From UHGV virus genome UHGV-0213490: a DNA stretch of 25,438 bases, one strand, 5' to 3'. The stretch comes from a virus. Of the stretch, positions 6,527-25,438 are shown in pieces. Made by a program: the position numbers and the translations under genes. Under the pieces are notes generated by a model. That model saw only the letters and a program-made list of their open reading frames with translations. It was not told where the DNA came from and ran no database searches. Positions within the stretch are counted from its first letter, which is position 1. Every line of letters starts with the position of its first letter.

Positions 6527-6547
6527 GAATAGTACAGGAGAAAATGG

Positions 6548-9148: not shown

Positions 9149-9149
9149 C

Positions 9150-9506: not shown

Positions 9507-9556
9507 ATAAATTTAGCACTGTAAATAAAATCAAATCCTTAACTGGAGGTATATCT

Positions 9557-9769: not shown

Positions 9770-9801
9770 TGTCAGGAGGCCGCCCGAAAGGGCGGTAAGA
9801 A

Positions 9802-10020: not shown

Positions 10021-10021
10021 T

Positions 10022-10387: not shown

Positions 10388-11199
10388 CCACTTTTACCAA
10401 TAGCAAACTAACAGACGAATACGTTTCAAATGCAACGTTGATTCGGCTCATTCTGTGGGCTGACCAGCACAATAGCCATTATGTTGTAGCGGCTCTGCGC
10501 GAGCTACAGGAGCGCCGCAAGGCTGATAGTGTGCCTGTAGAAATCAACGACGACATGGCTTACGCATTTCACCATGCGCTTTCTGACTCATCGCTTGGCT
10601 CTGATGAAATCGAAGAAATTAAAACCGGGTTGCGTGCTGCCTTTGCCAATGTCACCGTCCAGCCGGTGCTGATAGTGCCAGATGAAATCGAGCCAGACGA
10701 TAGCAATACGTTTGATTATGTTGATGGCTGGAACGCCTGCCGCGCCGCCATGCTTCAGAGTAACCAACCTGTAAGCCAAACTTACAACTTGCCAGAATTA
10801 ATCGAGGGCATGGAAGTTTCCATTGATGTAAGCACTTGTGATGCTGATTTAGGTAATCGCTATTTCGGCACCGTCACCGAGGCGTTAGAACTTGATACTG
10901 CCAAGAATGGCTACATCCTCCTGATTCAGGACGCAGAGCCAAACTTCGATGTAAATGGCAACTCTCCGGTAACTCCGGATGGTTGGATAAGCTGTAGTGA
11001 GCGAATGCCGGAAAAGGGCCAGAACGTGCTTATTTCGGTGAATTTCGATAGCTCTCTGGTTGAACCGCTAATATGCTCCGCACGCTATACCGGAAGCACC
11101 TTTCGGCGCGGAGATGCAACGATTAAGCCGGGTAATGGTATTGAGCAAGCAACTCACTGGATGCCGCTACCGGAACCACCGCAGGAGGTGAATCAATGA
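10384..11199 (+). CDS. DUF551 domain-containing phage protein
   Basis: 271-aa ORF coupled to the HNH gene (ATGA overlap); C-terminal WISCSERMPEKGQNVLISV is typical of DUF551. Confidence 0.65.
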   Translation: MTTFTNSKLTDEYVSNATLIRLILWADQHNSHYVVAALRELQERRKADSVPVEINDDMAYAFHHALSDSSLGSDEIEEIKTGLRAAFANVTVQPVLIVPDEIEPDDSNTFDYVDGWNACRAAMLQSNQPVSQTYNLPELIEGMEVSIDVSTCDADLGNRYFGTVTEALELDTAKNGYILLIQDAEPNFDVNGNSPVTPDGWISCSERMPEKGQNVLISVNFDSSLVEPLICSARYTGSTFRRGDATIKPGNGIEQATHWMPLPEPPQEVNQ

Positions 11200-11316: not shown

Positions 11317-11653
11317 AAGGAAACAAAACAGAAACAGCAATTGCCGTTACCTGTTGTTATCATGGCAAGTAAACGTATCTCAGGCGAGCGCATTGCGCCG
11401 TTCTGACGCAGATAAACTAGCCTGGATAGATGGTGCTGGCAATAAAAAATAGCGTTTTCTTATCGGTGTCGGTAAGATTGCTGCGGGTGCTTGAGGCTGT
11501 CTGCCTCGGGCATGCCACTGTAAGGCAGACAGAGAAAAGCCCCAGTTAACATTACGCGTCCTGCAAGACGCTTAACATTAATCTGAGGCCCAATCTATGT
11601 CTCACAAATGTAGGTTAGCCTCTTACGTGCCGAAAGGCAAGGAGAAGCAGGCT

Positions 11654-11809
11654 ATGAAGCAGCAAAAGGCGATGTTAATCGCCCTGATCGTCATCTGTTT
11701 AACCGTCATAGTGACGGCACTGGTAACGAGGAAAGACCTCTGCGAGGTACGAATCCGAACCGGCCAGACGGAGGTTGCTGTCTTCGTGGACTACGAATCT
11801 GAGAAGTAA
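11654..11809 (+). CDS. hok: Hok/Gef-family type I toxin
   Basis: MKQQKAMLIALIVICLTVIVTALVTRKDLCEVRIRTGQTEVAVFVDYESEK: single TM plus conserved CE..R.G..EVA motif; AGGAGA RBS; in-frame upstream ATG at 11597 gives a mok-like extension. Confidence 0.85.
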   Translation: MKQQKAMLIALIVICLTVIVTALVTRKDLCEVRIRTGQTEVAVFVDYESEK

Positions 11810-11902: not shown

Positions 11903-12021
11903 ACGTACTGTGGTTGTGAATACGATTGGTATTAGGCTATGCTAACAACATTAGCCTGACTAATTTTGTATTGACTTGATTTTTTGTTAAAGAACAGGAC
12001 GGAGAAGTAAGGGTACACCCA

Positions 12022-12201
12022 ATGAGCTACGCACTAAAAAAACACCCGCGATTGACTATTCCCCCTCGCGATAAAAGCGTTGTGGCAGCTCCGCGCCCGG
12101 CTATTGATGAAAATTGCACACATCGTGAGCAGGTGAAAAATGCTTTCGATTTCGGTTTTTCTCGTTACGAGAAGGCAATGGAAGAACTTTCAAAAGTGTA
12201 A
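12022..12201 (+). CDS. Candidate antitoxin/partner of the Fic/Doc toxin
   Basis: 59-aa ORF (MSYALKKHPRLTIPPRDKSVV...EKAMEELSKV) ending 10-19 nt before the Doc-like gene; below the ORF-track length cutoff; not recognisably Phd/YefM. Confidence 0.5.
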   Translation: MSYALKKHPRLTIPPRDKSVVAAPRPAIDENCTHREQVKNAFDFGFSRYEKAMEELSKV

Positions 12202-12210
12202 TAATGGGTA

Positions 12211-12705
12211 TTGTGCTCTATGGCTGAGATTGTTGAAGGAGTGCACTATCTTTCGGTTGATGATCTTACTGAAATCAATCGCCTTTTAATTGAGCTTCAA
12301 ACACCAGATGAACCTGTAGGTGTGCTGAGTGTTGATAATTTAAGTTCTTCTCAGGCCCGTCCCAGCATGGTTCGATGGTATGAACAGATCAATGACATGT
12401 TTGTACTGGCATCGGTATTGATTGAAAGTCTGATTCAGAATCATCCGTTTGCTAATGCGAACAAACGAACAGCTATGATGGCTGGTTACGTCTTCTTGTT
12501 GTTGAATGGCTATGAGTTAACAGCACCAGGCGATGAAATCGTGGAAATGGCAGAGGGACTGGCCTGCAAAACCTATACTCGAGAAGATCTCGAGAACTGG
12601 TTGTGTTATTGGTCTCGTGCGTATGACAGCCGGGAATTATGTAAAACAGGCGCAACTATTGTTTTGTATGAAACTATCAAGCTTAAAATAGAACAGCAAA
12701 ACTAA
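12211..12705 (+). CDS. doc: Fic/Doc-family toxin (death-on-curing-like)
   Basis: Doc-type Fic motif HPFANANKRTA; alternative ATG at 12220. Confidence 0.8.
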   Translation: MCSMAEIVEGVHYLSVDDLTEINRLLIELQTPDEPVGVLSVDNLSSSQARPSMVRWYEQINDMFVLASVLIESLIQNHPFANANKRTAMMAGYVFLLLNGYELTAPGDEIVEMAEGLACKTYTREDLENWLCYWSRAYDSRELCKTGATIVLYETIKLKIEQQN

Positions 12706-12720
12706 AGGTGCTTCCAATGA

Positions 12721-12745
12721 AAACCCGCTTCGGCGGGTTTTTTGT
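12721..12745 (+). terminator. Rho-independent terminator (second copy of the hok terminator sequence)
   Basis: AACCCGCTTCGGCGGGTTTTTT, identical over 22 nt to 11880-11901. Confidence 0.75.
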
Positions 12746-12818
12746 TTTACGTATTCTGGTTTACAATCCACAGGCCAGCCTGAACAACTGGCACCTGCTG
12801 CGCCAGCAGAGAAAACCG

Positions 12819-13091
12819 ATGGCGCACAATACCAAACATCACAATTCTGATACCGACCTTGCCAGCAGGCACGGGCGGTGTTCTCATGCATTCAAATATG
12901 ACTGGTACCAGCATGACCCCTGCACTGAAGAACAGGCCGAATGGCTGATTCAGAACTACCGCAGGCGTGGGTACGAGTTTCAGAAAGATCTCAGCTTCGA
13001 TCGTCGTCACTGGATAATCTCCGTCAGGCTCCCTTATTCCGAACGTCCGCCGCGTCCGTCCCGCACATTCCAGCAACGCATCTGGAGGTAA
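12819..13091 (+). CDS. Hypothetical protein
   Basis: 90-codon ORF from ATG 12819 ending 1 nt before the DUF968 gene start; Arg/His-rich. Confidence 0.4.
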   Translation: MAHNTKHHNSDTDLASRHGRCSHAFKYDWYQHDPCTEEQAEWLIQNYRRRGYEFQKDLSFDRRHWIISVRLPYSERPPRPSRTFQQRIWR

Positions 13092-13092
13092 C

Positions 13093-14142
13093 GTGCGGGT
13101 ATTGCTTCGACCTGTTCTGGTACCGGAACTCGGGCTGGTGGTCCTTAAGCCGGGTCGTGAATCCATGCGGGTATTTCATAATCCCCGGGTGCTGGTGGAG
13201 CCGGAACCGAAAAGCATGCGCGGTCTGCCGTCCGGCATTGTCCCTGTCGTTCGCCAGCCGCTGGCGGAGGATAAATCATTACAGCCATTTTTCAGCGATG
13301 AGCGGGTGATTCGTGCTGCCGGCGGCGCTGGTGCACTGTCTGACTGGCTCCTGCGTCATGTTAAATCCTGCCAGTGGCCTCATGGTGACTATCACCACAG
13401 CGAAACCGTCATACATCGTTACGGTACCGGCGCGATGGTGTTGTGCTGGCACTGCGACAACCAGCTGCGTGGCCAGACCTCCGAATCACTCGGGCAGCTT
13501 GCTCAACAAAATCTGGCAACCTGGATAATTGACGCCATCCGTCACGCAATAAATGGCGCGCAGGAGCGGGAGTTATCGCTGGCTGAATTGTACTGCTGGG
13601 CTGCTTTAAATAATGTGGTGGATGCCATAACCGAAAATATGGCGCGTCGAATCCTGAAACGTTCGGGTGAAAAAATCCTTTCCGTATACCGCGAAAGCGA
13701 CATCATACCGGGAGTGCAGACAGCCACCAGCATACTGAAGCAGCGCACAAAAAATATTGCGCTACCGCCTCACGTCCACCAGCAACAGAACTCACCGCAG
13801 GAAAAGGCGGTGGTAAGCATTGCCGTTGATCCGGATTCTCCGGAATCTTTCATGAAGCGCCCTAAACGTCGCCGCTGGGTTAACGAGAAATACACGCGCT
13901 GGGTAAAGATGCAGCCGTGTGCGTGTTGTGGTAAGCCAGCCGACGATCCCCATCACCTGATTGGTCATGGTCAGGGCGGAATGGGAACAAAATCCCACGA
14001 TATTTTCACGCTACCGCTGTGTCGGGAGCATCGCAACGAACTTCATGCGGATCCGCTGGCGTTCGAAGAAAAGCATGGTTCTCAGGTTGATTTAATTTTT
14101 CGTTTTCTTGATCACGCCTTTGCAACCGGTGTGCTTGGGTAA
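13093..14142 (+). CDS. DUF968 domain protein (YdfU-like, nin region)
   Basis: 349-aa ORF with GTG start after GGAGGTAA; C-terminal Cys/His cluster CACCGKPADDPHHLIGHGQGGMGTKSHD...CREHRNELH. Confidence 0.65.
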   Translation: MRVLLRPVLVPELGLVVLKPGRESMRVFHNPRVLVEPEPKSMRGLPSGIVPVVRQPLAEDKSLQPFFSDERVIRAAGGAGALSDWLLRHVKSCQWPHGDYHHSETVIHRYGTGAMVLCWHCDNQLRGQTSESLGQLAQQNLATWIIDAIRHAINGAQERELSLAELYCWAALNNVVDAITENMARRILKRSGEKILSVYRESDIIPGVQTATSILKQRTKNIALPPHVHQQQNSPQEKAVVSIAVDPDSPESFMKRPKRRRWVNEKYTRWVKMQPCACCGKPADDPHHLIGHGQGGMGTKSHDIFTLPLCREHRNELHADPLAFEEKHGSQVDLIFRFLDHAFATGVLG

Positions 14143-14154
14143 AAGGGGGTATTG

Positions 14155-14526
14155 ATGTGTATAGAGTTTGTTTTGCCTTACCCGCCGACGGTGAATACTT
14201 ACTGGCGACGTCGTGGCAGCACATATTTTGTATCAAAAGCCGGTGAGCGTTATCGCCGTGATGTGGCACTTATTGTTCGCCAGCAGCAACTGAAATTAAA
14301 CCTGTCCGGAAGGCTGGCGATAACGGTTATTGCCGAGCCGCCGGATAAGCGTCGTCGTGATCTGGACAATATCCTGAAAGCACCACTGGATGCGCTGACG
14401 CATGCGGGACTGCTTATCGACGACGAGCAGTTTGATGAAATTAATATTGTGCGCGGTCAGCTCGTTCCTGGTGGTCGGCTGGGCGTGAAGATTTGCGAAA
14501 TTAGAGGTGATAGTAATGGGGCGTGA
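14155..14526 (+). CDS. rusA: Holliday-junction resolvase RusA
   Basis: LPYPPTVNTYW...DKRRRDLDNILKAPLDALTHAGLLIDDEQ matches the RusA family signature; AAGGGGG RBS. Confidence 0.85.
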   Translation: MCIEFVLPYPPTVNTYWRRRGSTYFVSKAGERYRRDVALIVRQQQLKLNLSGRLAITVIAEPPDKRRRDLDNILKAPLDALTHAGLLIDDEQFDEINIVRGQLVPGGRLGVKICEIRGDSNGA

Positions 14527-14866
14527 TATGTATGAGGTTTTAGACCGCTGGGGGGCATGGGCTGCAGCAGAAAATAGTGGTGTCGATTGGCAACCGATAG
14601 CAGCGGGCTTCAAGGGGCTTTTACCACGCGGTAAAAAGTCACGTCTCCAGTGTGATGATGATGAGGGGCTCATGATCGATGGGTGCGTAGCTAGATTAAG
14701 AAAGTACAAACCAGAAGAGTATGAGTTAGTTATAGCCCATTTTGTGGTAGGGATTTCATTGCGAGCCATTGCTAAGAAGAGAAAGTGTTCGGATGGGACT
14801 ATCAGGAAAGAGTTGCAAACATCGCTTGGTTTCATTGAAGGCATTGTTTGCACTCTTGCCTGTTAA
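14516..14866 (+). CDS. Q: Late-gene antiterminator Q (QuuD/Q82-like)
   Basis: MGRDMYEVLDRWGAWAA...IAAGFKG...CDDDEG...C resembles E. coli QuuD-type Q proteins; GAGGTGA RBS; follows rusA as in lambdoid nin-Q order. Confidence 0.8.
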   Translation: MGRDMYEVLDRWGAWAAAENSGVDWQPIAAGFKGLLPRGKKSRLQCDDDEGLMIDGCVARLRKYKPEEYELVIAHFVVGISLRAIAKKRKCSDGTIRKELQTSLGFIEGIVCTLAC

Positions 14867-14887
14867 CTATTCTTAACTGTCTTCTAG

Positions 14888-15772
14888 TTATATTGGGCGC
14901 TTTGAATTCGATTTAAAGCGTCTTCCACTTATTCCAGAAACCCAAATGTCTTCCTCAAGAAAGTCAAGAAGGGCTTTTATTTCTTTTTTTGATGAAGGCA
15001 TGACAATTTTCTCAACGCCGCCAACTATTATGGTTTGTAAGGGGAATTTAACTTTAGCAGCTTCGGATTTAAACTTTGACATATTTGGGGGTGTTAGCAT
15101 CCCAGTCTGATTTATTAGTGTTACTTTATTTCTTATCACTGTATCTGCAACGGATTTTAGATCAAAACCTTGGGGAGTAGAAAATACACTAAGTTGACTA
15201 AATGCATTAAGTTCTTGGTCAGTAGCAGCAGAAAAATAGGACGACATGTCAAAAATGCTTCTTAGATTAAAGAAACTCTTAAATCGTATTGTATCATTGA
15301 TAATTATTGCAACTAGTTTATCATCAACATTAAAACCGATGCTATTAGCTTTACTAAAGGTAGTTTTGCTTGCAAAAAGCTTTCCAAAGAATGATTTTGA
15401 GGTATCTAAGATTTGTTTTTTGTTGAAAGTTTGTAGTGCAATAATATTGGGGTTTGCTGGCGCGTCAACACCAACAAATAATGCTTTAATATAACCAATA
15501 TCAATTTGGCTAGGATCCCAGATAGGCACGGCGGTAGGCCTATTGACTGCGTCAATCAGGCGTGCAGAATCAGTAAAGTTTTGTATTTCAAAACACTCAC
15601 TATGTTTTGGTGTATAACCGGCATAGAATGGTATCATATTGTTATGATGACTTTCAAAATATTGACGCTGTTGTTGGAAAATGGCCGTAACAGAAGTACT
15701 TGCTGTTGCATCAAGTTCGACTCTAACAATTCTCGTTGCAATTGTATTATCTATTACTGCAAAAAGTGCCAT
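14888..15772 (-). CDS. Unknown 294-aa soluble protein, gene 2 of AT-rich cassette (candidate defence effector)
   Basis: Long ORF in strongly AT-rich DNA on the opposite strand to the flanking phage genes; AAGGAT RBS; 5-nt gap from the upstream membrane gene; no motif I recognise. Confidence 0.7.
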   Translation of the reverse strand: MALFAVIDNTIATRIVRVELDATASTSVTAIFQQQRQYFESHHNNMIPFYAGYTPKHSECFEIQNFTDSARLIDAVNRPTAVPIWDPSQIDIGYIKALFVGVDAPANPNIIALQTFNKKQILDTSKSFFGKLFASKTTFSKANSIGFNVDDKLVAIIINDTIRFKSFFNLRSIFDMSSYFSAATDQELNAFSQLSVFSTPQGFDLKSVADTVIRNKVTLINQTGMLTPPNMSKFKSEAAKVKFPLQTIIVGGVEKIVMPSSKKEIKALLDFLEEDIWVSGISGRRFKSNSKRPI

Positions 15773-15777
15773 GGTTA

Positions 15778-16299
15778 TTATCCTTTAACATGTAGAAATG
15801 TGTAGTCTGTTAATTGAATAACTGTAAATTTGATATCTTTAATATCAGTAATGACTGATTTAGAAATCAATACAAAACCTACGCCGGTGTCATCTTCAGC
15901 TTCGTAAAATTTATAACCGATAAGTGACAATACTGGGTTAAAGTTATAGTTCTCGGAAAAGCTGATGTAAAATAACAATGACAAATAAAAGAATAACGCA
16001 TATGCTTTATTTTCAGCAATAGAATCTGTTCCTAGGAGAGGGAATAAATAGCTTAAGAAATAATTAGTTACTTCTTTGTTAGCTGGAGAAACTGAACTAA
16101 TATTTTTTGTCAGAGGTTCAAGTTGTTTCTCAGCATATTGAATCAGGCCTATTGCTAATAACCAACTTGCTATGCCAACGCATAAGCTATATTGCATCAG
16201 CCAAACCGTATCTTTTACATATCCAATAAAAAATAGAGTTGCGCAAACAGGTGCAATTGAGCTGGCCGTTAATAATAAGCGTGCTAATTTGTTCATCAT
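15778..16299 (-). CDS. Unknown 173-aa polytopic membrane protein, gene 1 of AT-rich cassette
   Basis: Three to four hydrophobic helices (LLLTASSIAPVCATLFFIGY, WLMQYSLCVGIASWLLAIGLIQY, YFLSYLFPLLG, AYALFFYLSLLFYISF) plus about 55-aa C-terminal tail; AAGGA RBS. Confidence 0.7.
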   Translation of the reverse strand: MMNKLARLLLTASSIAPVCATLFFIGYVKDTVWLMQYSLCVGIASWLLAIGLIQYAEKQLEPLTKNISSVSPANKEVTNYFLSYLFPLLGTDSIAENKAYALFFYLSLLFYISFSENYNFNPVLSLIGYKFYEAEDDTGVGFVLISKSVITDIKDIKFTVIQLTDYTFLHVKG

Positions 16300-16606
16300 G
16301 ATATCCTTTGTACTGTTTATGCATACAGCACTTTACATCATGTACTCCAAAGTATCTATCTTGTGAAGAATCTTACACTAAATACTACAGAAAAAGTTAA
16401 CGCGTACGCAAAAAGTATTATATCGTGTTAAGAGTGGTTACTTCGCCACACAGCTTAAACCCGCTCGACAGCGAGTTTTTTAGTGTCCGAAAAGCGGACC
16501 CAGCACGGTAAACGCGCTGGTGGTTGCGAATACTGGTCTTTAAGCTTGCTGGCTTTTTGGACAAGAGTTATTGGTATGTCACGTTAACCAGAAAAGGGAA
16601 AAAGAC

Positions 16607-16804
16607 ATGCTAAAACAGCAGGATATGACCGAAACCGCCAGAGTGGTGTTTAATGAGTTAAGCGTCACCGAACCGGCGACAGTCGGGGAAATTGCGCAGA
16701 ATACGTACCTTTCACGCGAACGCTGCCAGTTAATACTGACCCAGCTTGTTATGGCGGGTCTGGCAGATTATCAGTTCGGTTGTTACAGACGCCTTCCGCA
16801 GTGA
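16607..16804 (+). CDS. Small hypothetical protein (possible winged-helix DNA-binding)
   Basis: 65-aa ORF from ATG 16607 with AAAAGGGAAAAAG RBS; upstream of the methyltransferase. Confidence 0.4.
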   Translation: MLKQQDMTETARVVFNELSVTEPATVGEIAQNTYLSRERCQLILTQLVMAGLADYQFGCYRRLPQ

Positions 16805-16954
16805 AGGCTTTTTTATTTGTGGTAATGGGCGGCTGGTGGGTGTTAGCGGCACCTGCCAGCCATCTGCTCATGCGTTGGGGTCACAAGCAAACCTCAGGCC
16901 CATCTGCTTTGCGCAAAAGCAGAATGAGCCTATCAGAGAAGTGCTTATTGATCT

Positions 16955-18001
16955 ATGGCTAATACTGTAAAAATATCCAGTTGTGAGTCAATCAACGCTG
17001 ATTGCCTGGAATTTATCCAGACCTTACCGGAAAACTCTGTCGATCTGATAGTCACAGACCCGCCATACTTTAAAGTGAAGCCCGAGGGCTGGGATAACCA
17101 GTGGAAGGGCGACGATGATTACCTGAAATGGCTGGACCAGTGTCTGGCGCAATTCTGGCGGGTACTGAAGCCTGCCGGAAGTCTTTACCTGTTCTGTGGT
17201 CATCGCCTGGCATCTGATATCGAAATCATGATGCGTGAACGCTTTAATGTGCTGAACCACATTATCTGGGCGAAGCCGTCCGGGCGCTGGAACGGATGCA
17301 ACAAGGAAAGCCTGCGGACGTATTTCCCGGCAACAGAACGCATTCTGTTTGCAGAACATTATCAGGGGCCATACCAGCCCAAAAATGACGGCTATGCGGC
17401 AAAGGGGCGCGAGCTAAAACAGCACGTCATGGCCCCGCTGATTTCTTACTTTCGTGATGCGCGTGAATCACTGGGAATAACGTCAAAACAGATAGCGGAA
17501 GCCACCGGAAAGAAAAACATGGCTTCGCACTGGTTTGGTATCAGTCAGTGGCAGTTGCCGAACGAAGGCGATTATCTGAAATTACAGGCGTTGTTTGCGC
17601 GTGTTGCAGCAGAAAAACATCAGCGCGGTGAACTGGAAAAGCCACACCACCAGCTGGTCAGCACATACAGTGAACTGAACCGGCAATATGCCAGTCTGCT
17701 GGATGAGTACAAATCCCTGCGGCGTTATTTTTCCGTATCGGCTGCCGTTCCGTATACGGATGTCTGGACGCACAAGCCTGTGCAGTATTACCCCGGCAAA
17801 CATCCCTGTGAGAAACCGGCGGATATGTTGCGTCAGATAATTACCGCCAGCAGCCATCCGGGAGATTTGGTCGCTGATTTTTTTATGGGGTCGGGGTCAA
17901 CAATAAAAGCAGCATTATCGCTGGGAAGGCGTGCAATAGGTGTGGAACTGGAAGAAGAGAGATTTAACCAGACTGTAATTGAAATAAAAAATAATCGTTA
18001 A
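16955..18001 (+). CDS. Orphan DNA methyltransferase (beta-class N6-adenine/N4-cytosine)
   Basis: Motif IV DPPY (IVTDPPYF) precedes motif I FxGxG (DFFMGSGST); no adjacent restriction endonuclease. Confidence 0.85.
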   Translation: MANTVKISSCESINADCLEFIQTLPENSVDLIVTDPPYFKVKPEGWDNQWKGDDDYLKWLDQCLAQFWRVLKPAGSLYLFCGHRLASDIEIMMRERFNVLNHIIWAKPSGRWNGCNKESLRTYFPATERILFAEHYQGPYQPKNDGYAAKGRELKQHVMAPLISYFRDARESLGITSKQIAEATGKKNMASHWFGISQWQLPNEGDYLKLQALFARVAAEKHQRGELEKPHHQLVSTYSELNRQYASLLDEYKSLRRYFSVSAAVPYTDVWTHKPVQYYPGKHPCEKPADMLRQIITASSHPGDLVADFFMGSGSTIKAALSLGRRAIGVELEEERFNQTVIEIKNNR

Positions 18002-18170
18002 ATGTGTGTATCATCATTTCTGCATTTTATGAATAATAGAAATTTATACATATATTTACGAATATTGACACAGTTTTTAATTGAAAAAGTATCTGTCCTC
18101 ATTAATATTCCTTTTCGGTTCCGAGGGGGATGTAAAGCGCGGTCATTTTTATTTTTCCTGAGGAACCAAT

Positions 18171-18246
<76 letters not shown>

Positions 18247-18249
18247 TAT

Positions 18250-18324
<75 letters not shown>

Positions 18325-18685
18325 GCATTTGAAATAAGCCTTATTGTATTGCAGCACTGGCGTATTTTTATTACGTGGGAGCAGGTTGTTTTGAAAAAGC
18401 ATTCTGTTCTCTGGCTATGATTTGAGGCCAGGTTAGCCTCAGTGCTGATTTTTTTGCGACAGCAGAATGGTGCATTGCTGGTGGAGATTTTGTATTTCCT
18501 GGCAGGGTCGGTGATGCATCATTCTGGTGTTGTAAATAACACCACCGGGGTGTTCCTCAGAGCGAGGGTGGTTAAAAGAGTCGGTTTAACGGGAAATCAC
18601 AGTATTCATACAGGACGGAATACTTCGGGAGGCACCCGACACCTCGGTTTTATTACAATTAAGAATGTATTTCTTGCATTGACCA

Positions 18686-18711
18686 ACCGCCGTATCCGGC
18701 GGTTTTTTTTA
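18686..18711 (+). terminator. Rho-independent terminator
   Basis: CCGCCG-tatc-CGGCGG followed by TTTTTTTT. Confidence 0.7.
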
Positions 18712-18843
18712 TTCAGAATTCCGTTTCTTTATGGTTCGCTGCGGCGGGCCTTTTTCATATCTGCGCTTTACTCAACGTGTATTGAATCTGAATACATCAC
18801 ATAAAAGACATCGGCGGGTGCCTTTGACGGGGTGTTTTATTAC

Positions 18844-18866
18844 GGGCCGCTGGTGGCCCTTTTTTA
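18844..18866 (+). terminator. Rho-independent terminator just upstream of the lysis cassette
   Basis: GGGCC-gctggt-GGCCC followed by TTTTTT, 19 nt before the holin RBS. Confidence 0.7.
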
Positions 18867-18884
18867 TTTACAGGAGAAAAAAGT

Positions 18885-19274
18885 ATGTCTGAACCCTTAT
18901 CCGGTTCCGGCACGGCTGCGGCGCTCGGTGGGGCGACGGTATTCGGGCTGTTTACCGGAACGGATTTCGGGATTGTATTTGGTGCGTTCGCTGGTGCGTT
19001 GTTTGTGGCAACAATGCCGCAGACACTTTCAGCCTGGCGTGTGGCTGCACATTTTCTGGTGTCCTTTATTGTTGGTGTGCTTGGGGCGGATGTGATGGCG
19101 TCTTACCTGGTTGAAAAACTGAATCTCCACAGCACATCTCTCGACGCGCTTTGCGCGGTACTGGTATCGGTGGTGTCGGTGAAGATTCTCTCATTCATCC
19201 ACCAGCAGGATATCGCATCGCTGTTATCCGGGCTGTTCTCCCGTCTGCGGGGTGGAGGCGGTAATGTTAAGTAA
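18885..19274 (+). CDS. Putative holin (multi-TM membrane protein)
   Basis: 129-aa ORF with GGAGAAAAAAG RBS; Gly/Ala-rich TM helices; first gene of the lysis cassette. Confidence 0.55.
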   Translation: MSEPLSGSGTAAALGGATVFGLFTGTDFGIVFGAFAGALFVATMPQTLSAWRVAAHFLVSFIVGVLGADVMASYLVEKLNLHSTSLDALCAVLVSVVSVKILSFIHQQDIASLLSGLFSRLRGGGGNVK

Positions 19275-19292
19275 CCTTCCCGGATTACTGAT

Positions 19293-19541
19293 GTGGTGTT
19301 AAGCACGGTTATCGTGCTGACGCTCTTTTTTTATCGTCGTGGTGAGTCGAGACATAAACCGCTGATGTCGTGGCTGGCCTGGCTGCTGATGCTGCTTTAT
19401 GCCTTTGCGCCGCTTTGTTATCTGTGTGGTCGCTTTCCACCCGGTAACTGGCTGGTCGTCCTGATTAACCTAGTGTTCTGCGTGCTGGTGATACGAGCAC
19501 GCGGGAACGTATCAAGAATCCTTGTATTACGAAGGCGCTGA
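19293..19541 (+). CDS. Small membrane protein in lysis cassette (possible holin/antiholin partner)
   Basis: GTG start at 19293 or ATG at 19365; two hydrophobic helices; ends 1 nt before the endolysin ATG. Confidence 0.4.
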   Translation: MVLSTVIVLTLFFYRRGESRHKPLMSWLAWLLMLLYAFAPLCYLCGRFPPGNWLVVLINLVFCVLVIRARGNVSRILVLRRR

Positions 19542-19542
19542 T

Positions 19543-20088
19543 ATGAAGTCGAAAGATGAAATTTTTGACGAAATTCTGGGAAAAGAGGGCGGTTACGTCA
19601 ATCACCCGGATGATAAAGGTGGTCCGACTAAATGGGGCATCACTGAAAAAGTTGCCCGTGCACACGGTTATCAGGGCGATATGCGTGACCTGACGCGTGG
19701 GCAGGCGCTGGAAATACTCGAGGCGGACTACTGGTACGGACCACGATTCGACCAGGTTGAGGACCTGTCTCCTGATATTGCCGCAGAGTTGTGCGATACG
19801 GGCGTGAACATGGGGCCAACTGTGGCGTCCAGAATGCTTCAGCGCTGGCTGAACGTTTTCAACCTGCGCGGGAAACTCTATCCGGATATGGATGCTGATG
19901 GACGCATCGGGCCGCGTACTCTTAATGCATTACGGGCATATCTGAAAAATCGCAGCAGGGATGGTGAACTGGTACTGGTGAAAGCCCTGAACTGTACGCA
20001 GGGCGAGCGTTATCTGGAGCTGGCAGAGAAACGCGAGGCCAATGAGTCGTTTGTCTATGGCTGGCTGAAAGAGCGCGTGGTGGTTTAA
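19543..20088 (+). CDS. Endolysin, GH108-type muramidase with peptidoglycan-binding domain
   Basis: MKSKDEIFDEILGKEGGYVNHPDDKGGPTKWGIT is the typical GH108 N-terminus; C-terminal PG-binding-like region; alternative upstream ATG at 19522. Confidence 0.8.
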   Translation: MKSKDEIFDEILGKEGGYVNHPDDKGGPTKWGITEKVARAHGYQGDMRDLTRGQALEILEADYWYGPRFDQVEDLSPDIAAELCDTGVNMGPTVASRMLQRWLNVFNLRGKLYPDMDADGRIGPRTLNALRAYLKNRSRDGELVLVKALNCTQGERYLELAEKREANESFVYGWLKERVVV

Positions 20089-20184
20089 AAACTGACACTG
20101 AAGTGCTGAACACCCTCAACTCATGCAGGCTCTTTTCTGGGGCTACGATGAGCGAAAGTAAGGGGCATAGCATCAGATAGCAAA

Positions 20185-20220
20185 AACCCCGGCTGCGGTA
20201 ACAGTCCGGGGTTTTCTGTT
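20185..20220 (+). terminator. Rho-independent terminator after the endolysin
   Basis: CCCCGGCTG-cggtaa-CAGtCCGGGG followed by a T-rich run. Confidence 0.65.
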
Positions 20221-20248
20221 TCTGGCCTTGGGTAAGGCAAAGGAGAAC

Positions 20249-20431
20249 ATGAGGAAGTATAAACTAATTCTGTTGAGGTTGACTATGAAAAACGGCCTTG
20301 AATTGAAAGCGCCTGTAACTGATGACATCAGCAGAGCGGTGGCTTTTGCCATTAAGTGGGTGGCGGTCGGTATCACTGTGTCTCCGATTCTGTATGGGAT
20401 GGCAAAATTGATCATTGCTGTGAAATCGTAA
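20249..20431 (+). CDS. Small protein with C-terminal TM helix
   Basis: 60-aa ORF with AAGGAGAA RBS; C-terminal AVAFAIKWVAVGITVSPILYGMAKLIIAV. Confidence 0.45.
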   Translation: MRKYKLILLRLTMKNGLELKAPVTDDISRAVAFAIKWVAVGITVSPILYGMAKLIIAVKS

Positions 20432-20448
20432 GTGGGGCAGGGGTAAAT

Positions 20449-20583
20449 ATGTCAGATAGCATTATAAAACTGGCGCGAATTCTCTGTGTGGTTGTTGGCC
20501 TTTCATTTTCAGCAATGTTGGTTGCCATTTTCATTTCCACCGCCTGGCGAGTATTGAGCCTATCCGGATTGATTGGTGGATAG
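20449..20583 (+). CDS. 44-aa single-TM micro-protein
   Basis: ATG 20449 after GGGGCAGGGG; MSDSIIKLARILCVVVGLSFSAMLVAIFIST. Confidence 0.4.
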   Translation: MSDSIIKLARILCVVVGLSFSAMLVAIFISTAWRVLSLSGLIGG

Positions 20584-20587
20584 TGAG

Positions 20588-20770
20588 ATGAAGCGAAAAC
20601 ACTGGACACACAGAATGCCGCGAACGGCGGCGAAATGGGCACTGGTAGCGATACTGGTGCCTTTTTTCCTGGTGGGATGCGTCAGCCTGGATAAGGCGCG
20701 CCAGCTTTTCGATACAGCTTCTCAGATCTGTGAAATTGTCGACGGTGTTCGGCAGTGTATGCAGAACTGA
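20588..20770 (+). CDS. Small lipoprotein
   Basis: 60-aa ORF with signal peptide and lipobox (ALVAILVPFFLVGC); two further Cys in the mature part. Confidence 0.5.
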   Translation: MKRKHWTHRMPRTAAKWALVAILVPFFLVGCVSLDKARQLFDTASQICEIVDGVRQCMQN

Positions 20771-20944
20771 TCGCCTGTAAGAGCAGAATATTTTGCTGAA
20801 AAATGAAGGATGCGCCGGCGTCCGGAAAGCATGAAATTCTGTGTTTGTGGCTACTCAATAAAATAAATTCTTTCTGTCTGCGCGAATACTCAAATGTTGA
20901 TCAGCGCCCGGGGCGGTGACGGGCTTCGATATCAGGAGAAGATA

Positions 20945-21337
20945 ATGGAAAAGAAAGAAGACAAACCAATGGTAATTGGTGCTGTGGCTGTTCCGTTTAA
21001 GTTTGAACTGTCACAACTGGTGGAGATGCGCATCAGTGATGAATGGGGTGAGGTTAAAGCTCGCGCGCAGTATGCGGATGGCGAAAACCAGTACTTGATC
21101 CACTACAAGGCTGCTGATGGTCGCGCCACAACGGCGTGGTTTGGTGAGTCAATGCTGGAAGCAACAGAAGATGATCGCCATCCGGGCTGTCCGGTATTTG
21201 CCGGTATGAAATTACCGGAAGGTGCAGTTGAACTGCAGCCGGGTGAGGTGTTCGTAATGTCAGAAGTCATTGATGGCAAACCGCAGTATTCACGTATTGA
21301 AACTAACGGCAAGGACGTTTGTCTGGTTAGCAAGTAA
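20945..21337 (+). CDS. Hypothetical protein upstream of cos
   Basis: 130-aa ORF from ATG 20945 (MEKKEDKPMVIGAVAVPF...) with AGGAGAAGA RBS. Confidence 0.5.
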   Translation: MEKKEDKPMVIGAVAVPFKFELSQLVEMRISDEWGEVKARAQYADGENQYLIHYKAADGRATTAWFGESMLEATEDDRHPGCPVFAGMKLPEGAVELQPGEVFVMSEVIDGKPQYSRIETNGKDVCLVSK

Positions 21338-21724
21338 CTTGCATTACAGCAGCCCTTCAGTGAGGGGCTGCGATAATGTGAGAAATAAAAAACCGGTCAC
21401 AGGGAGTGGCTACACAGAACCGGCCGGCGAAGATCGCCAATACCACCCATGCTTCAGTAAAACATACATATGACATTAGCTGGTATTGATGTAAATGCAA
21501 TGTTACGCATCGACAAAAATAAAAAACCGGCAGGGGAAATCCATTGAAGATTTGCCGGTGGCAAAAGAGGGCCATGTTTTTAACCTTAGTCGCAGAGTTA
21601 CGGAGTGCAACTACGAATGCTGCCGGTATATGGCTGAATGGCGTTTCAATGATGTACGTCATCTTATCTGTAAATGTTAATGATAAACGCTCTCATTTGT
21701 GTGGGTCCTTCCGGTGGGGAGGCC

Positions 21725-21750
21725 TTCCACGGGGCGGGAGCGTCGCGGAA
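21725..21750. other. cos site (cosN-like) for DNA packaging
   Basis: CACGGGGCGGGAGCGTCGCGG closely resembles lambda cosN (ACGGGGCGGCGACCTCGCGG, from memory), about 180 bp upstream of the Nu1-like gene with an A/T-rich cosB-like tract between. Confidence 0.6.
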
Positions 21751-21927
21751 AAAGGCTAGTTTTTGCATTTTCATTCATCATCATCATCTTTTCAATGCAT
21801 TGAATTTAAACGAATTTTATTTTTAGTATGTTAATTTTGCGTGTTTTTTGGTCAACATATAACGCACTTTATAACGCTTTTTGAAAAGGTGTTCGCAAGA
21901 TGCATGTTTAAAACGTCAGGAGGGGAT

Positions 21928-22419
21928 ATGGATCGTGAGTTGAAAAATCTGATGCTGAACATTAACCAACTGGCGGCAATAGCAGGTATATGTCGTCAGA
22001 CTGCGGCGGCAAGACTGCAAAACATCCAGCCCGCCGGAGGACATGACAAGTTAAAGCTCTACCGGGTGGCAGATATTGTGTCGGCATTTCTGGCATTACC
22101 ACCGCCAGTTGCAGAAGGCGAAATGGACGCGCATGAGCGCAAAGCCTGGTATCAGTCTGAGCGTGAACGTCTTAAGTTTGAACAGGAAACAGCACAACTT
22201 ATTCCGGCAAGCGATGTCAGGCGGGAATTTGCCATCTGGGCAAAAGCGGTGGTACAGGTGCTGGAGACATTACCCGATGTTCTGGAGCGTGACTGCGGTC
22301 TGCAGCCCACTGCTGTAAGTCGTGTTCAGACCATCATTGATGATCTGCGCGATCAGATAGCCCAACGGGTGACCGAAACAGGTGCGGATGATGAGGAGGA
22401 ATTACATCAGGAGGAGTAA
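21928..22419 (+). CDS. Terminase small subunit (lambda Nu1-like)
   Basis: MDRELKNLMLNINQLAAIAGICRQTAAARLQNI is an N-terminal HTH comparable to Nu1; acidic C-terminus; lies just downstream of cos. Confidence 0.7.
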   Translation: MDRELKNLMLNINQLAAIAGICRQTAAARLQNIQPAGGHDKLKLYRVADIVSAFLALPPPVAEGEMDAHERKAWYQSERERLKFEQETAQLIPASDVRREFAIWAKAVVQVLETLPDVLERDCGLQPTAVSRVQTIIDDLRDQIAQRVTETGADDEEELHQEE

Positions 22420-22501
22420 TGCTGAATCAGGAAACCGCAAAGGCAGCACGAACCGATTCAGGTTATATCCTTCGTGCACCGAGACGAATGCGGATTGCTG
22501 A

Positions 22502-23524
22502 TGCTGTCGCTCAATATATGCGGGTATTCTTGCGAAATCGACCGTTGCTGCCGTTATCGAATACCTCGGTTTACAGGAAACGGTAAATCAGGCTTCTGGC
22601 GCATTACAGAAAAACCAGAACGGCGCAGATATTCCAGGAAAAGATACCTTCACCAAAAATATTGGTGCCTGCCGCGCATATAGCGCATGGCTGAATATTG
22701 GTGGCGATAGTCAGGTCTGGACAACCGCGCAATTTATTTCGTGGCTGGAGAGTCAGGGAGCATTTAACCATCCTTACTGGATGTGCAAAGGCTCATGGGC
22801 TTATGCAAACAATAAGGTCATTACAGATACAGGTTGCGGAAATATTTGTCTTGCAGGTGCTGTGGTGGAAGTTATTGGCACTCGCGGCGCAATGACCATA
22901 CGCGTTACCACGCCGAGTACGTCCAGCGGCGGCGGAATCACTAACGCTCAATTCACTTATATTAATCATGGTGATGCTTACGCTCCTGGCTGGCGACGAG
23001 ACTACAACACGAAAAACCAGCAGCCTGCATTTGCTTTAGGGCAAACAGGAAGCACTGTCGGAAATGATAAAGCTGTTGGCTGGAACTGGAATAGCGGGGT
23101 CTATAACGCAAATATTGGTGGCGCATCGACATTAATCCTCCATTTCAATATGAATGCGGGGAGTTGCCCTGCTGTACAGTTCCGCGTGAATTATAAGAAC
23201 GGCGGTATTTTTTATCGTTCAGCGCGTGATGCTTATGGATTTGAGACTGACTGGTCAGAATTCTACACCACAACACGTAAGCCATCAGCGGGAGATGTTG
23301 GTGCATATACGCGGGCAGAATGTAACTCAAGGTTTATTACAGGTATTCGCCTTGGCGGTCTGTTATCTGTTAAGACATGGCATGGTTCTGGCTGGTCTGA
23401 CAGGTCAGGTTATGTCGTTACGGGTTCAGTTAACGAAAACCGTGATGAATTAATTGATACAATTCAGGCAAGGCCAATTCAGTATTGCATTAATGGGGTG
23501 TGGTATAACGCGGGGAGTATTTAA
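22502..23524 (+). pseudogene. Side tail fibre protein, 3' fragment (N-terminal part missing)
   Basis: Open frame with no start before the in-frame TGA at 22499-22501; GALQKNQNGADIPGKD resembles the conserved RLQKDQNGADIPDKG motif of lambda-type Stf; followed by tfa. Confidence 0.6.
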
Positions 23525-23526
23525 CG

Positions 23527-24069
23527 ATGATGCACTTAAAAAACATTACTGCTGGAAACCCTAAAACAAAAGAGCAATACCAGCTAACGAAACAATTTAA
23601 CATCAAATGGCTTTATACAGAGGATGGGAAAAACTGGTATGAGGAACAAAAGAACTTTCAGCCTGATACGTTGAAAATGGTCTATGACCACAACGGCGTT
23701 ATTATTTGTATTGAAAAGGATGTTTCAGCAATTAATCCGGAAGGCGCAAGCGTCGTTGAATTACCTGATATTACAGCAAATCGCCGGGCTGATATTTCGG
23801 GTAAATGGATGTTTAAGGATGGCGTGGTAATTAACCGGGAATGCACTTATGAAGAACTGGTGCAGCAGGCAAAAAATAAAAAGAGCTTATTAATGCGACA
23901 GGCCGATGATTGCATGGCACCCCTTCGGGATGCTGTGGATTTGGATATGGCGACAGAGGGGGAAAAGGAACAGTTACTGACCTGGAAGAAATATCGGGTG
24001 TTACTAAACCGTGTTGATACATCGACCGCGCCGGATATTGAATGGCCGGAAGAACCAGACACAATGTAA
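23527..24069 (+). CDS. tfa: Tail fibre assembly protein
   Basis: [48 protein letters not shown]...[16 protein letters not shown] is a typical Tfa sequence. Confidence 0.85.
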
Positions 24070-24232
24070 GCGAAAAGAAAAACCGCAGACACGACGTATG
24101 CAGGACGTGCTGCGGTTGGCTGGCGAACTTTCGATAGTGCGAGTATTGAATGATTTCCAGCCGTTATTGATTTTATATAACTGTAGTGGAGTTATTCAAC
24201 ACACAGGCAAAACGGAATAATCTGAGAAAAAA

Positions 24233-24262
24233 GCGTGCTTCGCCAATCAGGGGGCGAAGCAC
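24233..24262. terminator. Strong hairpin (11-bp perfect stem), likely minus-strand terminator
   Basis: CGTGCTTCGCC-aatcaggg-GGCGAAGCACG; a T-run follows on the minus strand. Confidence 0.5.
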
Positions 24263-24525
24263 GTCTGAATGACACCTGAAAATTTCCCGTCCGTTAAGTG
24301 TCCGTCCCGAGAGAAGTGGGGAACCATAACACCCTGTCGGGACGCAGAAAGAAACAACACAACTTGCAGGGATATTTTCTTGATAAAGCATGAATGAGCA
24401 AGTGATTGTTTGTGCTGGCAGGGATTTTAGGAATTTTTTGGCAGAAAATATACCAATTGGTATACCAAGTTTATACCAAGAGCCAAAAAGCAAAGGGGCT
24501 ACCATTCGGTAACCCCTTGATTATC

Positions 24526-24613
24526 TGGCGGAAGCGCAGAGATTCGAACTCTGGAACCCTTTCGGGTCGCCGGTTTTCAAGACCGGTGCCTTCAACCGCT
24601 CGGCCACACTTCC
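24526..24613 (-). tRNA. serT: tRNA-Ser(UGA), host serT
   Basis: Reverse complement reads GGAAGTGTGGCCGAGCGGTTGAAGGCACCGGTCTTGAAAACCGG...GAGTTCGAATCTCTGCGCTTCCGCCA: long variable arm, anticodon UGA, 88 nt. Confidence 0.9.
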
Positions 24614-25039
24614 GGAATGACGCGCACTATAAACATCCCGATGCGGCGTGTAAACCCCTAATTTGTTTGTTTGCCTGAAAAACAGCCAAAAGTGCATTGA
24701 TAGCGTGAAATAACAGCAGATTGATCATTTCATCACCATGAATTCCTTCTCTTTTACTCGTTTAGCAACCGGCTAAACATCCCCACCGCCCGGCCAAAAG
24801 AAAAATAGGTCCATTTTTATCGCTAAAAGATAAATCCACACAGTTTGTATTGTTTTGTGCAAAAGTTTCACTACGCTTTATTAACAATACTTTCTGGCGA
24901 CGTGTGCCAGTGCAGAAGGATGAGCTTTCGTTTTCAGCATCTCACGTGAAGCGATGGTTTGCCTTGCTACAGGGACGTCGCTTGCCGACCATGTGCGCCC
25001 GGTGTCCTGCCGGTGTCGCAAGGAGAAGAGACGTGCGAT

Positions 25040-25438
25040 ATGAATAACGAGGAAACATTTTACCAGGCCATGCGGCGTCAGGGCGTTACCCGGCGCAGCT
25101 TTCTCAAATATTGTAGTCTGGCTGCCACGTCGCTGGGATTAGGCGCGGGAATGGCACCAAAGATTGCCTGGGCGCTGGAGAACAAACCCCGCATTCCGGT
25201 GGTATGGATCCACGGTCTGGAATGCACCTGCTGTACCGAATCTTTTATCCGCTCCGCTCACCCACTGGCGAAGGACGTCATCCTTTCCCTGATTTCCCTC
25301 GATTACGACGATACTTTGATGGCTGCCGCCGGAACCCAGGCGGAAGAAGTCTTTGAAGACATCATCGCGCAATACAATGGCAAATATATCCTCGCAGTAG
25401 AAGGTAATCCGCCGCTGGGCGAGCAGGGGATGTTCTGT
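25040..25438 (+). CDS. hyaA: Hydrogenase-1 small subunit HyaA, 5' portion (runs off window)
   Basis: [37 protein letters not shown] has a Tat signal and matches E. coli HyaA; HGLECTCC cluster motif; GGAGAAGAG RBS. Confidence 0.9.

Follow-up and report, generated by a model that had tools for sequence, protein, structure and literature searches.

In two prophages of E. coli K-12, packaging genes are joined to what is left of a tail-fibre module. DLP12 (nohD-aaaD'-tfaD) keeps its lysis genes, cos, and nu1 and A sequence (PMC3945230). Next after its intact small terminase gene comes the aaaD pseudogene, a short 5′ stub of a gene for a gpA-type large terminase (TerL), in which 102 codons match positions 3-58 of the GpA_ATPase profile; the stub is fused to what remains of the tail-fibre module, and upstream of it the lysis cassette is kept. 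In Qin (nohA-stfQ'-tfaQ), all head and tail genes are gone, and the small terminase gene abuts and overlaps a C-terminal fragment of the side tail fibre gene stf, followed by the tail-fibre assembly gene tfa.

The locus described here, part of a 25,438-nt stretch of DNA (UHGV-0213490, hereafter the window), is organised in the same way but differs from both K-12 prophages in detail. Specifically, i) the small terminase (TerS) of the window is of the DUF1441 type, whereas those of DLP12 and Qin belong to the Phage_Nu1 family (PF07471); ii) the TerL stub has 36 codons and is joined to stf, whereas that of DLP12 has 102 and is joined to tfa, and Qin has no TerL stub at all between the two genes; iii) in Qin, whose fibre fragment is of nearly equal size (320 aa compared with 332 aa here), the pin invertase gene, absent from the window, adjoins tfaQ, and the integration site is another; and iv) DLP12 is an old prophage with many lesions, IS insertions among them, whereas the prophage in the window is, but for two lesions, identical to an intact sibling. 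Closer to hand are two related lambdoid prophages at the same yccA-serT site, in E. coli ETEC1706 (L001) and in GCA_012378975.1 (L030), both of which have lost their morphogenesis genes and kept tfa and attR. L001 has a packaging gene of the Nu1 type and joins a portal fragment to a C-terminal tail-fibre fragment; in L030, the DUF968 gene (window 13589) is joined to stf (window 23344), a deletion larger than that in the window, and L030 also lacks the stretch where the window carries Q, Kiwa, the lysis genes, and terS. As the breakpoints of L001 and L030 differ from those of the window, they represent separate events. The same terS-terL packaging module, in the same gene order, is found at 85-88% DNA identity in mEp460 and phi458 and without a single mismatch (apart from one 1-bp gap over the aligned stretch to the breakpoint) in the draft loci L017 and L018, but in all four the 20-kb morphogenesis block, absent from the window, is complete.

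We conclude that a lambdoid (mEp460-like) prophage integrated at serT has, with high probability, lost about 20.1 kb in one internal deletion, and that the interval is the resulting scar. Both flanks match intact prophages to an extent far beyond chance. The left arm (window 11929-22526) corresponds to L017 1-10599, with no mismatches in 10,598 nt and one 1-bp gap; past the breakpoint, L017 continues into a 700-aa gpA-type TerL, portal, a ClpP-capsid fusion, tail genes, and tape measure. The right arm (window 22520-25438) is 99.1% identical to L028 over 2,920 nt, and its proximal part (22520-24700) is 98-99% identical to seven more intact prophages at the same site (L026, L027, L029, and L031-L034), with mismatches clustering at 23113-23287; in these relatives the matching sequence forms the last part of an 840-843-aa stf gene, with identical tfa and then hyaA after it. 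Thus the right parent is deduced from other intact prophages at the site that are 99% rather than 100% identical, and the comparison as a whole rests on draft and metagenome assemblies. An intact reference with a near-identical TerL was also sought among 5,426 complete E. coli genomes, where the best match reached 95.6%. Strain 52F4 (L003) was considered as an intact reference and set aside; it has another tail-fibre/tfa allele and is integrated at potB, and maps the left breakpoint only.

The missing DNA amounts to about 20,071 nt, composed of 8,890 nt from terL codon 37 to the start of the tape-measure gene in L017, 3,075 nt for a 1,024-aa tape measure, and 8,106 nt from the end of the tape-measure gene to the stf breakpoint in L032; the L017 and L018 sequence that was compared reaches only to the tape-measure gene, and this size is therefore pieced together from two draft loci, no single contig showing both deleted ends. 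The estimate of some 20.07 kb agrees with the 20 kb or so that the initial annotation had supposed to be missing. Of terL only the first 36 codons survive, stf lacks its 5′ 508 codons, and the portal, protease-capsid, head-tail, and tail genes, together with J and lom, are gone; the virion genes among those lost are present in L017 and L026-L034.

At the junction (22520-22526), three-way alignments reveal a short imperfect repeat and no filler DNA. The terL arm of the repeat reads GCGGGTA (terL codons 34-36) and the stf arm GCGGGATA (stf codons 506-509), as it does in all nine of the nine intact stf genes at the serT site; strictly, the crossover falls on the TA at 22525-22526. The breakpoints therefore share 2 nt of exact homology, or 7 nt if one bulge is allowed, and just 0.08% of breakpoint pairs drawn at random show homology as great as this. 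The junction is flanked by remnants of truncated genes, TerL codons 1-36 and Stf codons 509-840, and alignment with intact relatives, the check that the initial annotation had proposed, resolves the breakpoints to the base. A scan of Rfam for structured RNAs at or near the junction found none, and in a promoter and terminator scan of 21300-24700 the counts did not exceed those in shuffled sequence, the serT terminator being the sole notable site. A 46-mer across the junction had no match in a set of one representative genome per species, and no place in the 5,426 complete E. coli genomes covered 80% or more of a junction-spanning query. The exact 55-aa chimeric product encoded at the junction (see below) occurs on 4 contigs in public data, which stem from two projects or more.

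The small terminase gene (21928-22419, plus strand) is intact and encodes 163 aa. Its only Pfam match is DUF1441 (PF07278, 135 bits), and it matches phrog_141, "terminase small subunit", at E = 2.4e-71; in the same library, K-12 NohD and NohA score 332 and 336 bits against Phage_Nu1 (PF07471), which does not match the protein of the window. The "Nu1-like" label first given to this gene is thus mistaken. In the intact siblings an identical terS leads, with overlapping stop and start codons, into a 700-aa TerL having GpA_ATPase and GpA_nuclease domains. The same overlap is preserved here, between the TAA of terS (22417-22419) and the ATG (22419-22421) of a 55-codon ORF (22419-22586, plus strand), just as first annotated, and the start of this ORF is translationally coupled to the terS stop. 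The ORF is chimeric, consisting of 36 TerL codons (22419-22526, plus strand) followed by 19 codons of out-of-frame stf DNA. The TerL part is identified by PHROG TerL matches covering residues 1-36/37 and by identity to L017 and L018, which extends through 22526 and gives way to unrelated sequence beyond. In the intact L017 TerL, the ATPase domain (PF05876) spans residues 41-304 and the endonuclease domain (PF20454) residues 326-644; the stub thus stops short of the ATPase domain, and neither catalytic domain is present in the window. The initial annotation had the small terminase and a fibre 3′ fragment meeting at a deletion junction; a deletion junction it is, but the two do not abut directly, since the 36-codon TerL stub lies between them.

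Upstream of terS, a conserved non-coding segment of 72 nt (21703-21774, plus strand) is 100% identical to L017 9776-9847 and recurs, with 86-92% identity, in a satellite-like element parasitic on this type of phage; we regard it as a candidate cos or packaging recognition site.

Downstream of the junction, the stf fragment (22526-23524, plus strand) comprises codons 509-840, 332 aa or roughly the last third of a parental gene of 840-843 codons, and aligns to L028 from L028 coordinate 8993/9000, with 99.1% identity. The fibre reading frame is open from 22502, after a TGA at 22499-22501, has its first start codon at 22781, and ends at 23524. The initial annotation was right that this frame opens at 22502 without a start codon, but the breakpoint is not there: bases 22502-22524, although in the fibre frame, are terL DNA, and the true breakpoint is 22525/22526. 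The N-terminal tail-attachment domain (phage_tail_N, PF08400), found at residues 1-134 of an intact 840-aa Stf, is missing from the 340-codon open frame; what remains matches gp37_C, and matches tail-fibre PHROGs at internal to C-terminal profile positions. The C-terminal receptor-binding part is followed, as in a complete Stf/Tfa module, by an intact gene for the Caudo_TAP chaperone Tfa (23527-24069, plus strand; 180 aa; PF02413, 150 bits; phrog_136), and an identical Tfa comes after full-length stf in intact prophages at serT-hyaA. An ORF farther on (24173-24505, minus strand) has no Pfam or PHROG match; it was considered as part of the event and rejected, its sequence being present in intact siblings as well.

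The window covers the prophage from integrase to attR. A tyrosine integrase gene (1-1020, minus strand; Pfam Phage_integrase) marks the left end, and an identical integrase adjoins yccA/tusE/yccX/rlmI in many assemblies. At the right end, attR (24481-24585) is a repeat of about 105 nt that includes the 3′ 60 nt of serT, the tRNA-Ser(UGA) gene (24526-24613, minus strand; ARAGORN and Rfam) which is the integration target and is followed by hyaA; the matching attL is found between yccA and int, about 142-248 nt beyond window position 1 and outside the window, and window 24481-24585 aligns with L015 7162-7268 at 88% over 107 nt. On contig L004, a short-read assembly to which the window is 100% identical, the sequence is collinear past the junction and through the tRNA-Ser gene into hyaABCDEF-appCB. 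The host chromosome is of the E. coli type and collinear on either side of the prophage, which has yccA and hyaA as its neighbours and is inserted at the 3′ end of serT.

Consistent with a lambdoid prophage, the element has flanking att repeats and an integrase, and retains early, regulatory, and lysis modules, including exonuclease VIII-like, DicB, repressor/Cro-like, YdaT, O-like replication initiator, RusA, and Q genes, two holin-family genes, and a GH108 endolysin. (Truncation of Q by insertion of Kiwa was considered and rejected; Q covers positions 2-113 of a 118-position Pfam profile.) All other sizeable ORFs in the window are early, regulatory, replication, cargo, or lysis genes, and between int and attR/tRNA-Ser we found no large terminase catalytic domain, portal, capsid, or tail genes. 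Because the window spans int to attR, there is no room in the prophage for another morphogenesis module. These findings bear out the initial annotation as to the absence of the large terminase, portal, capsid, and tail genes, the 36 TerL codons excepted, and of any complete morphogenesis module elsewhere in the prophage; they also support its view of the prophage as defective, since gene content suggests that the element can neither cut and package DNA nor make virions on its own.

We propose that the short imperfect repeat recombined through slipped mispairing or microhomology-mediated joining, with the crossover falling between GCGGGTA in terL and GCGGGATA in stf, and without the help of long homology. 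A single step of this kind would have removed TerL residues 37-700 with both catalytic domains, portal, the protease-capsid fusion, head-completion and tail genes, tape measure, J, lom, and the first 508 codons of stf. What is left comprises int, the early, immunity, replication, Q, cargo, and lysis genes, an intact small terminase, a TerL stub of 36 codons that runs on into stf out of frame, a start-less receptor-binding third of stf, tfa, and attR; with only these genes left after the deletion, the remnant presumably could not cut or package DNA or build particles alone. The deletion is real, yet it is ordinary prophage decay and calls for no new mechanism.

A second lesion accompanies the first. 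In the second holin-family gene (Phage_holin_3_7; 19264-19541, plus strand), comparison with L017 reveals a 1-bp deletion at about position 19291 (GAATG to GATG) that frameshifts the first 9 or so codons and is the sole difference from L017 in 10.6 kb. The change is private to the junction-bearing loci (the window, L004/L016, and L005), absent from 7 relatives, and shared by the 4 contigs with the exact chimeric ORF; it is a second lytic-function lesion in the same lineage. The prophage also carries a complete Kiwa anti-phage system (14888-16299, minus strand), with KwaB at 14888-15772 (PADLOC E = 1.4e-149) and KwaA at 15778-16299 (E = 1.9e-83), located between Q and a DNA methyltransferase gene.

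The initial annotation presumed the retained cargo to be what is maintained, and it could be argued that loss of lytic functions benefits the host and that cargo such as Kiwa, Fic/Doc, hok/sok, the methyltransferase, and tRNAs is kept by selection. In keeping with such domestication, exactly two events separate the prophage from its intact sibling in 10.6 kb, both of them in lytic functions; at least three independent morphogenesis deletions have occurred at this single site; and surveys of incomplete prophages report that losses fall preferentially on terminase and portal genes, with enrichment of tail-fibre and integrase genes (PMC7744054). We nevertheless consider selected domestication possible but rather doubtful. 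The intact sibling L017 holds the same cargo (Kiwa, Fic, and methyltransferase) with zero substitutions in 10.6 kb, and so little divergence leaves no time for unselected genes to decay; the deletion is probably recent, and because it is too recent, the retained cargo says nothing about selection. Moreover, the independent L030 deletion at the same site takes in the stretch where the window carries Kiwa, the methyltransferase, and the lysis genes, the junction is found on only 4 contigs while most contigs with an identical TerS have an intact TerL, and the holin lesion may merely reflect relaxed selection after the deletion. Selective maintenance of the cargo is thus not supported.

A single-step deletion also has to be weighed against the notion that the junction is the last of several nested deletions, or arose by recombination with a lambdoid or P2-like prophage sharing the fibre module, since successive deletions, or recombination between co-resident prophages followed by loss, would give the same end product. 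The stf 3′ module does occur at 96-97% identity in P2-like prophages and in lambdoid prophages elsewhere (L006, L008, and L009), and the clustered right-arm mismatches, together with a 99% rather than 100% match to intact relatives, would fit such an exchange. However, the right arm runs unbroken through identical tfa, attR, and serT-hyaA, just as it does in the intact prophages integrated there, the chromosome on either side is collinear, and the 22526/22527 boundary holds no remnant of an intermediate junction, all of which make a multistep or inter-prophage origin improbable. Nested deletions, if there were any, would leave the identity of the feature unchanged. L006 was tried as a right-side reference and dropped; the match there is gpH of a P2-like prophage, and shows only that the fibre module is mosaic.

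Less probable still is that the locus is a helper-dependent mobile element, a satellite-like remnant packaged by a phage of the same terminase type by means of its integrase, replication genes, candidate cos, and TerS. All of these are indeed kept, and real satellite-like elements that parasitise phages of this type carry the same terS-upstream segment and a DUF1441 TerS, but the prophage matches a full phage in sequence except for the deletion, has no dedicated hijacking genes, keeps the lambdoid early region and the lysis cassette in full, and bears two truncated genes that are plainly scars. At about 24.6 kb it is also about 55% of the parental genome, which is too short for a monomer under the headful limits of cos phages. 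A phage satellite or PICI in the strict sense (about 10-15 kb, with modules of its own and hijacking genes) was likewise rejected for this 24.6-kb truncated phage; compare the satellite-like element in L019/L036.

There is a slim chance that TerS and the coupled 36-residue TerL stub hamper packaging by related superinfecting or co-resident phages, or that cos and TerS let a helper mobilise the Kiwa-bearing remnant. In lambda gpA, the equivalent N-terminal segment binds the small subunit, and a TerS/stub pair could sequester cos DNA or poison holoterminase assembly. Both ideas, interference and mobilisation, derive solely from what was retained, and the sequence demands neither.

Finally, an assembly artefact, in which a contig was misjoined from terL to stf and the morphogenesis genes are in fact still there, might be suspected given that tail-fibre 3′ ends are repeated among prophages and that the window is identical to a short-read contig, but it can be dismissed with near certainty: the two sides of the join share 2 nt exactly, or 7 nt if a bulge is allowed, which is much shorter than the k-mer of any assembler, the junction and the holin deletion occur together in independently assembled sets (ENA ERZ1034669 and Logan SRR7658583), and the contig continues collinearly into serT-hyaABCDEF-appCB.

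Because the deletion has a zero-substitution parent, a 7-nt imperfect-repeat breakpoint, a second lytic lesion, and several independent counterparts at the same site, it offers a clean natural case of the first step in prophage decay, and a usable data point on the speed and mechanism of prophage disarmament in E. coli where defence cargo such as Kiwa is retained. For annotation, the prophage should be scored as defective, and the 55-codon ORF, like the "tail-fibre" ORFs of 219-247 aa reported by gene callers, is an artefact of the deletion.

At its left end the window starts with the stop of a tyrosine integrase gene (1-1020, minus strand) and ends just beyond a tRNA-Ser(UGA) gene (24526-24613, minus strand). 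In assemblies with an identical integrase, the gene neighbors yccA, tusE, yccX, and rlmI, those encoding the chimeric ORF described below run on into hyaABCDEF-appCB, and a repeat of about 105 nt (24481-24585), including the 3′ 60 nt of the tRNA, has a second copy between int and yccA; because of these flanks and the att repeat, we place a prophage of about 24.6 kb, all but attL, inside the window. Near its right end, a small terminase gene (terS; 21928-22419, plus strand; Pfam DUF1441, 135 bits; phrog_141 "terminase small subunit", E = 2.4e-71) has a TAA stop (22417-22419) that overlaps the ATG (22419-22421) of a 55-codon ORF (22419-22586, plus strand). This ORF is chimeric: residues 1-36/37 match PHROG families including large terminase, and family searches gave no match for the remainder of the product. 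A second frame, which holds a 3′ fragment of the side tail fibre gene stf, is open from 22502 to 23524 (plus strand) with no start codon before 22781, matching gp37_C and many tail-fibre PHROGs at internal to C-terminal profile positions, and is followed by the tail-fibre assembly gene tfa (23527-24069, plus strand; 180 codons; Caudo_TAP). The initial annotation was accurate as to gene positions, overlap, and frames, save for its "Nu1-like" label: TerS works like Nu1 yet lies outside the Phage_Nu1 family, matching DUF1441 instead, whereas NohA and NohD, the small terminases of the Escherichia coli K-12 prophages Qin and DLP12, are Phage_Nu1.

Intact siblings were found by looking up the exact TerS protein in public assemblies, and many intact prophages at serT-hyaA by looking up the exact Tfa protein. 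The breakpoint could indeed be mapped against such relatives: i) window 11929-22526 aligns with 1-10599 of the intact sibling L017 (ENA ERZ28649528, a 153.8-kb scaffold) with zero mismatches and one 1-bp gap, and identity ends exactly at 22526; ii) window 22520-25438 matches the intact serT prophage L028 at 99.1%. L017 shares Fic, DUF968, RusA, Q, KwaB, KwaA, methyltransferase, holin, endolysin, and terS with the window, and continues beyond terS with a 700-aa gpA-type large terminase (TerL), a 70-aa protein, portal, a ClpP-capsid fusion, head-completion and tail genes, and then the tape measure; the intact serT-hyaA prophages have lom, J, and other tail genes before a full-length stf of 840-843 codons, and then Tfa. 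The window retains TerL codons 1-36, short of the ATPase (residues 41-304) and nuclease (326-644) domains; the first wholly stf-derived codon is 509 of 840 (L028 coordinates), leaving 332 C-terminal Stf residues without the N-terminal phage_tail_N attachment domain. Missing are the 8,890 nt that run, in L017, from terL codon 37 up to where the tape measure starts, the 3,075 nt of the tape measure itself (1,024 aa), and 8,106 nt from the tape-measure end to the stf breakpoint (L032, another intact prophage at this site), or about 20,071 nt as a composite of L032 and of L017, whose stretch reaches the tape-measure gene; this agrees with the 20 kb proposed initially, and putting the block back would give a prophage of about 44.7 kb, as large as the mEp460-type phages.

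The remaining sizeable ORFs are all early, regulatory, replication, cargo, or lysis genes (exonuclease VIII-like, DicB, repressor/Cro-like, YdaT, and an O-like initiator; DUF977, HNH, Fic, DUF968, RusA, Q, KwaB/KwaA, and an N6/N4 methyltransferase; two holin-family genes and a GH108 endolysin), leaving no place within the prophage for a second morphogenesis module. Because it is without TerL catalytic domains, portal, capsid, and tail, the prophage would, judging from gene content, be unable to package DNA or assemble particles. The reading of a deletion junction in a defective prophage was right.

Across the breakpoint, the terL parent reads ...TATATGCGGGTA|CCCATGG..., the stf parent ...GTCGGGCGGGATA|TTCTTGCG..., and the window ...TATATGCGGGTA|TTCTTGCG..., and three-way alignment revealed no filler DNA. 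The exact parental overlap is TA, and 7 nt (GCGGG-TA) are shared if one bulged base is allowed; among 400,000 random position pairs from the two parental stretches, an exact overlap of at least 2 nt occurred in 6.7%, and 7 nt with one bulge in just 0.08%. GCGGGATA was present at the stf breakpoint in 9/9 retrieved intact stf genes at this site. The frequencies among random pairs are consistent with crossover at a short imperfect repeat in terL and stf, by which the deletion may have arisen.

The junction is genuine. A k-mer mis-join is ruled out by an overlap of merely 2-7 nt. The exact 55-aa chimera is encoded on four public contigs, among them a 133.8-kb ENA contig that matches 13 kb of the window at 100% and a separately assembled Logan contig. 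A 1-bp deletion at about 19291 (GAATG to GATG), which frameshifts the first codons of a Phage_holin_3_7 gene (19264-19541), is all else that separates the window from its intact sibling over 10.6 kb; it is common to all junction-bearing loci, including an independent assembly, was found solely in loci with the 20-kb deletion, and is missing from seven relatives. The junction is also rare: no match was found in one representative genome per species or in complete E. coli genomes (0/5,426), and among the ten identical-TerS neighborhoods listed it occurs once, the others having a complete TerL (seven) or a TerL interrupted by another element (two).

The element represents an otherwise intact prophage that has recently undergone deletion. 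At typical E. coli substitution rates, zero substitutions imply that it and the intact sibling separated on the order of decades, or at most a few centuries, ago. Both differences from the intact sibling strike lytic functions, which hints mildly at selection against lysis, but relaxed selection following the first lesion would predict this equally well. Nor can it be derived, as had been presumed, that the retained cargo is being maintained: an intact sibling with the same cargo differs by not one substitution over 10.6 kb, so there has been no time for anything to decay, and the deletion in L030, another derivative at this site, takes in the stretch where the window has Kiwa and the lysis genes. 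That TerS and the TerL N-terminal stub interfere with packaging, or that a helper mobilizes the remnant, is a reading drawn solely from which parts happened to be retained, and we consider it very improbable.

What we have is a real, recent, and precisely mappable deletion scar in a lambdoid prophage, of a kind already well known. Its architecture is textbook: in DLP12, nohD is followed by the aaaD pseudogene, 102 codons of which match the start of GpA_ATPase, and then tfaD, and in Qin, nohA directly adjoins a 320-aa fragment of stfQ, with tfaQ next. Surveys report tail-fibre and integrase genes to be enriched in incomplete prophages, and terminase and portal preferentially lost (PMC7744054); experimentally, infecting lambda recombines with the DLP12, Qin, and Rac remnants (PMC3945230). 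Related prophages carry independent morphogenesis deletions: at the same serT site, L030 (GCA_012378975.1, position 9818) has the DUF968 gene fused, at window 13589, to stf, at window 23344, a larger deletion than that of the window, and L001 (E. coli ETEC1706, 26130-26925) has a piece of the portal fused to a C-terminal piece of a tail fibre; at ompW in other E. coli strains, the tRNA/holin region of L008 and L009 (about 3700-4230) runs into lom, J, or stf. The tfa adjoining attR survives every time.

Several other features of the prophage deserve mention. A complete Kiwa system (KwaB, 294 aa, and KwaA, 173 aa; 14888-16299, minus strand, opposite to the late operon) lies between the Q antiterminator and DNA methyltransferase genes, as also in the intact siblings L017 and L018. 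Further toxin-type cargo, a hok/sok-type locus (11485-11659; Rfam sok, 118 bits) and a Fic/Doc-family gene (12211-12705), lies upstream of DUF968, RusA, and Q. Two phage-borne tRNAs, tRNA-Thr(UGU) and tRNA-Gly(UCC) (18171-18324), separate the methyltransferase from the lysis cassette, a slot holding Ile/Lys/Gly or Gly alone in relatives (L008, L002). In L002 (E. coli RM13752), 2001-2495 matches window 24091-24585, the pre-attR region and part of serT, and sits upstream of an integrase, adjoining the tail-fibre end of another prophage, which suggests tandem prophages at the site. Window 22527-23825 (the stf 3′ part and first half of tfa) shares 97% identity with tail-fibre gene H and tfa from a P2-like prophage in E. 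coli IAL7250, with an adjacent invertase and inverted fibre segment; this shows exchange of the receptor-binding module between siphovirus-type and myovirus-type prophages.

An element of about 10.7 kb is found within terL (at about codon 333) of prophages with the same terminase type (L019, 5160-14161; L024; and L036, E. coli EC42405, NZ_CP043414.1, 13759-24448). It encodes a tyrosine integrase, a small HTH protein, Bro-N, Icd-like and DUF4222 proteins, a RepA-type helicase, SSB, and a ClpP-capsid fusion and a DUF1441 small terminase of its own. In a complete genome one half of terL lies on either side of the element, and about 13 nt of terL (L017 11478-11490) are present twice. It looks like a capsid-encoding satellite with the helper terL as attachment site, and a literature search found no description of it. 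A GC-rich non-coding segment of 72 nt upstream of terS in the window (21703-21774), a candidate cos or terminase-recognition site, is kept at 86-92% in other prophages with this terminase type and, in two copies, in the element itself.
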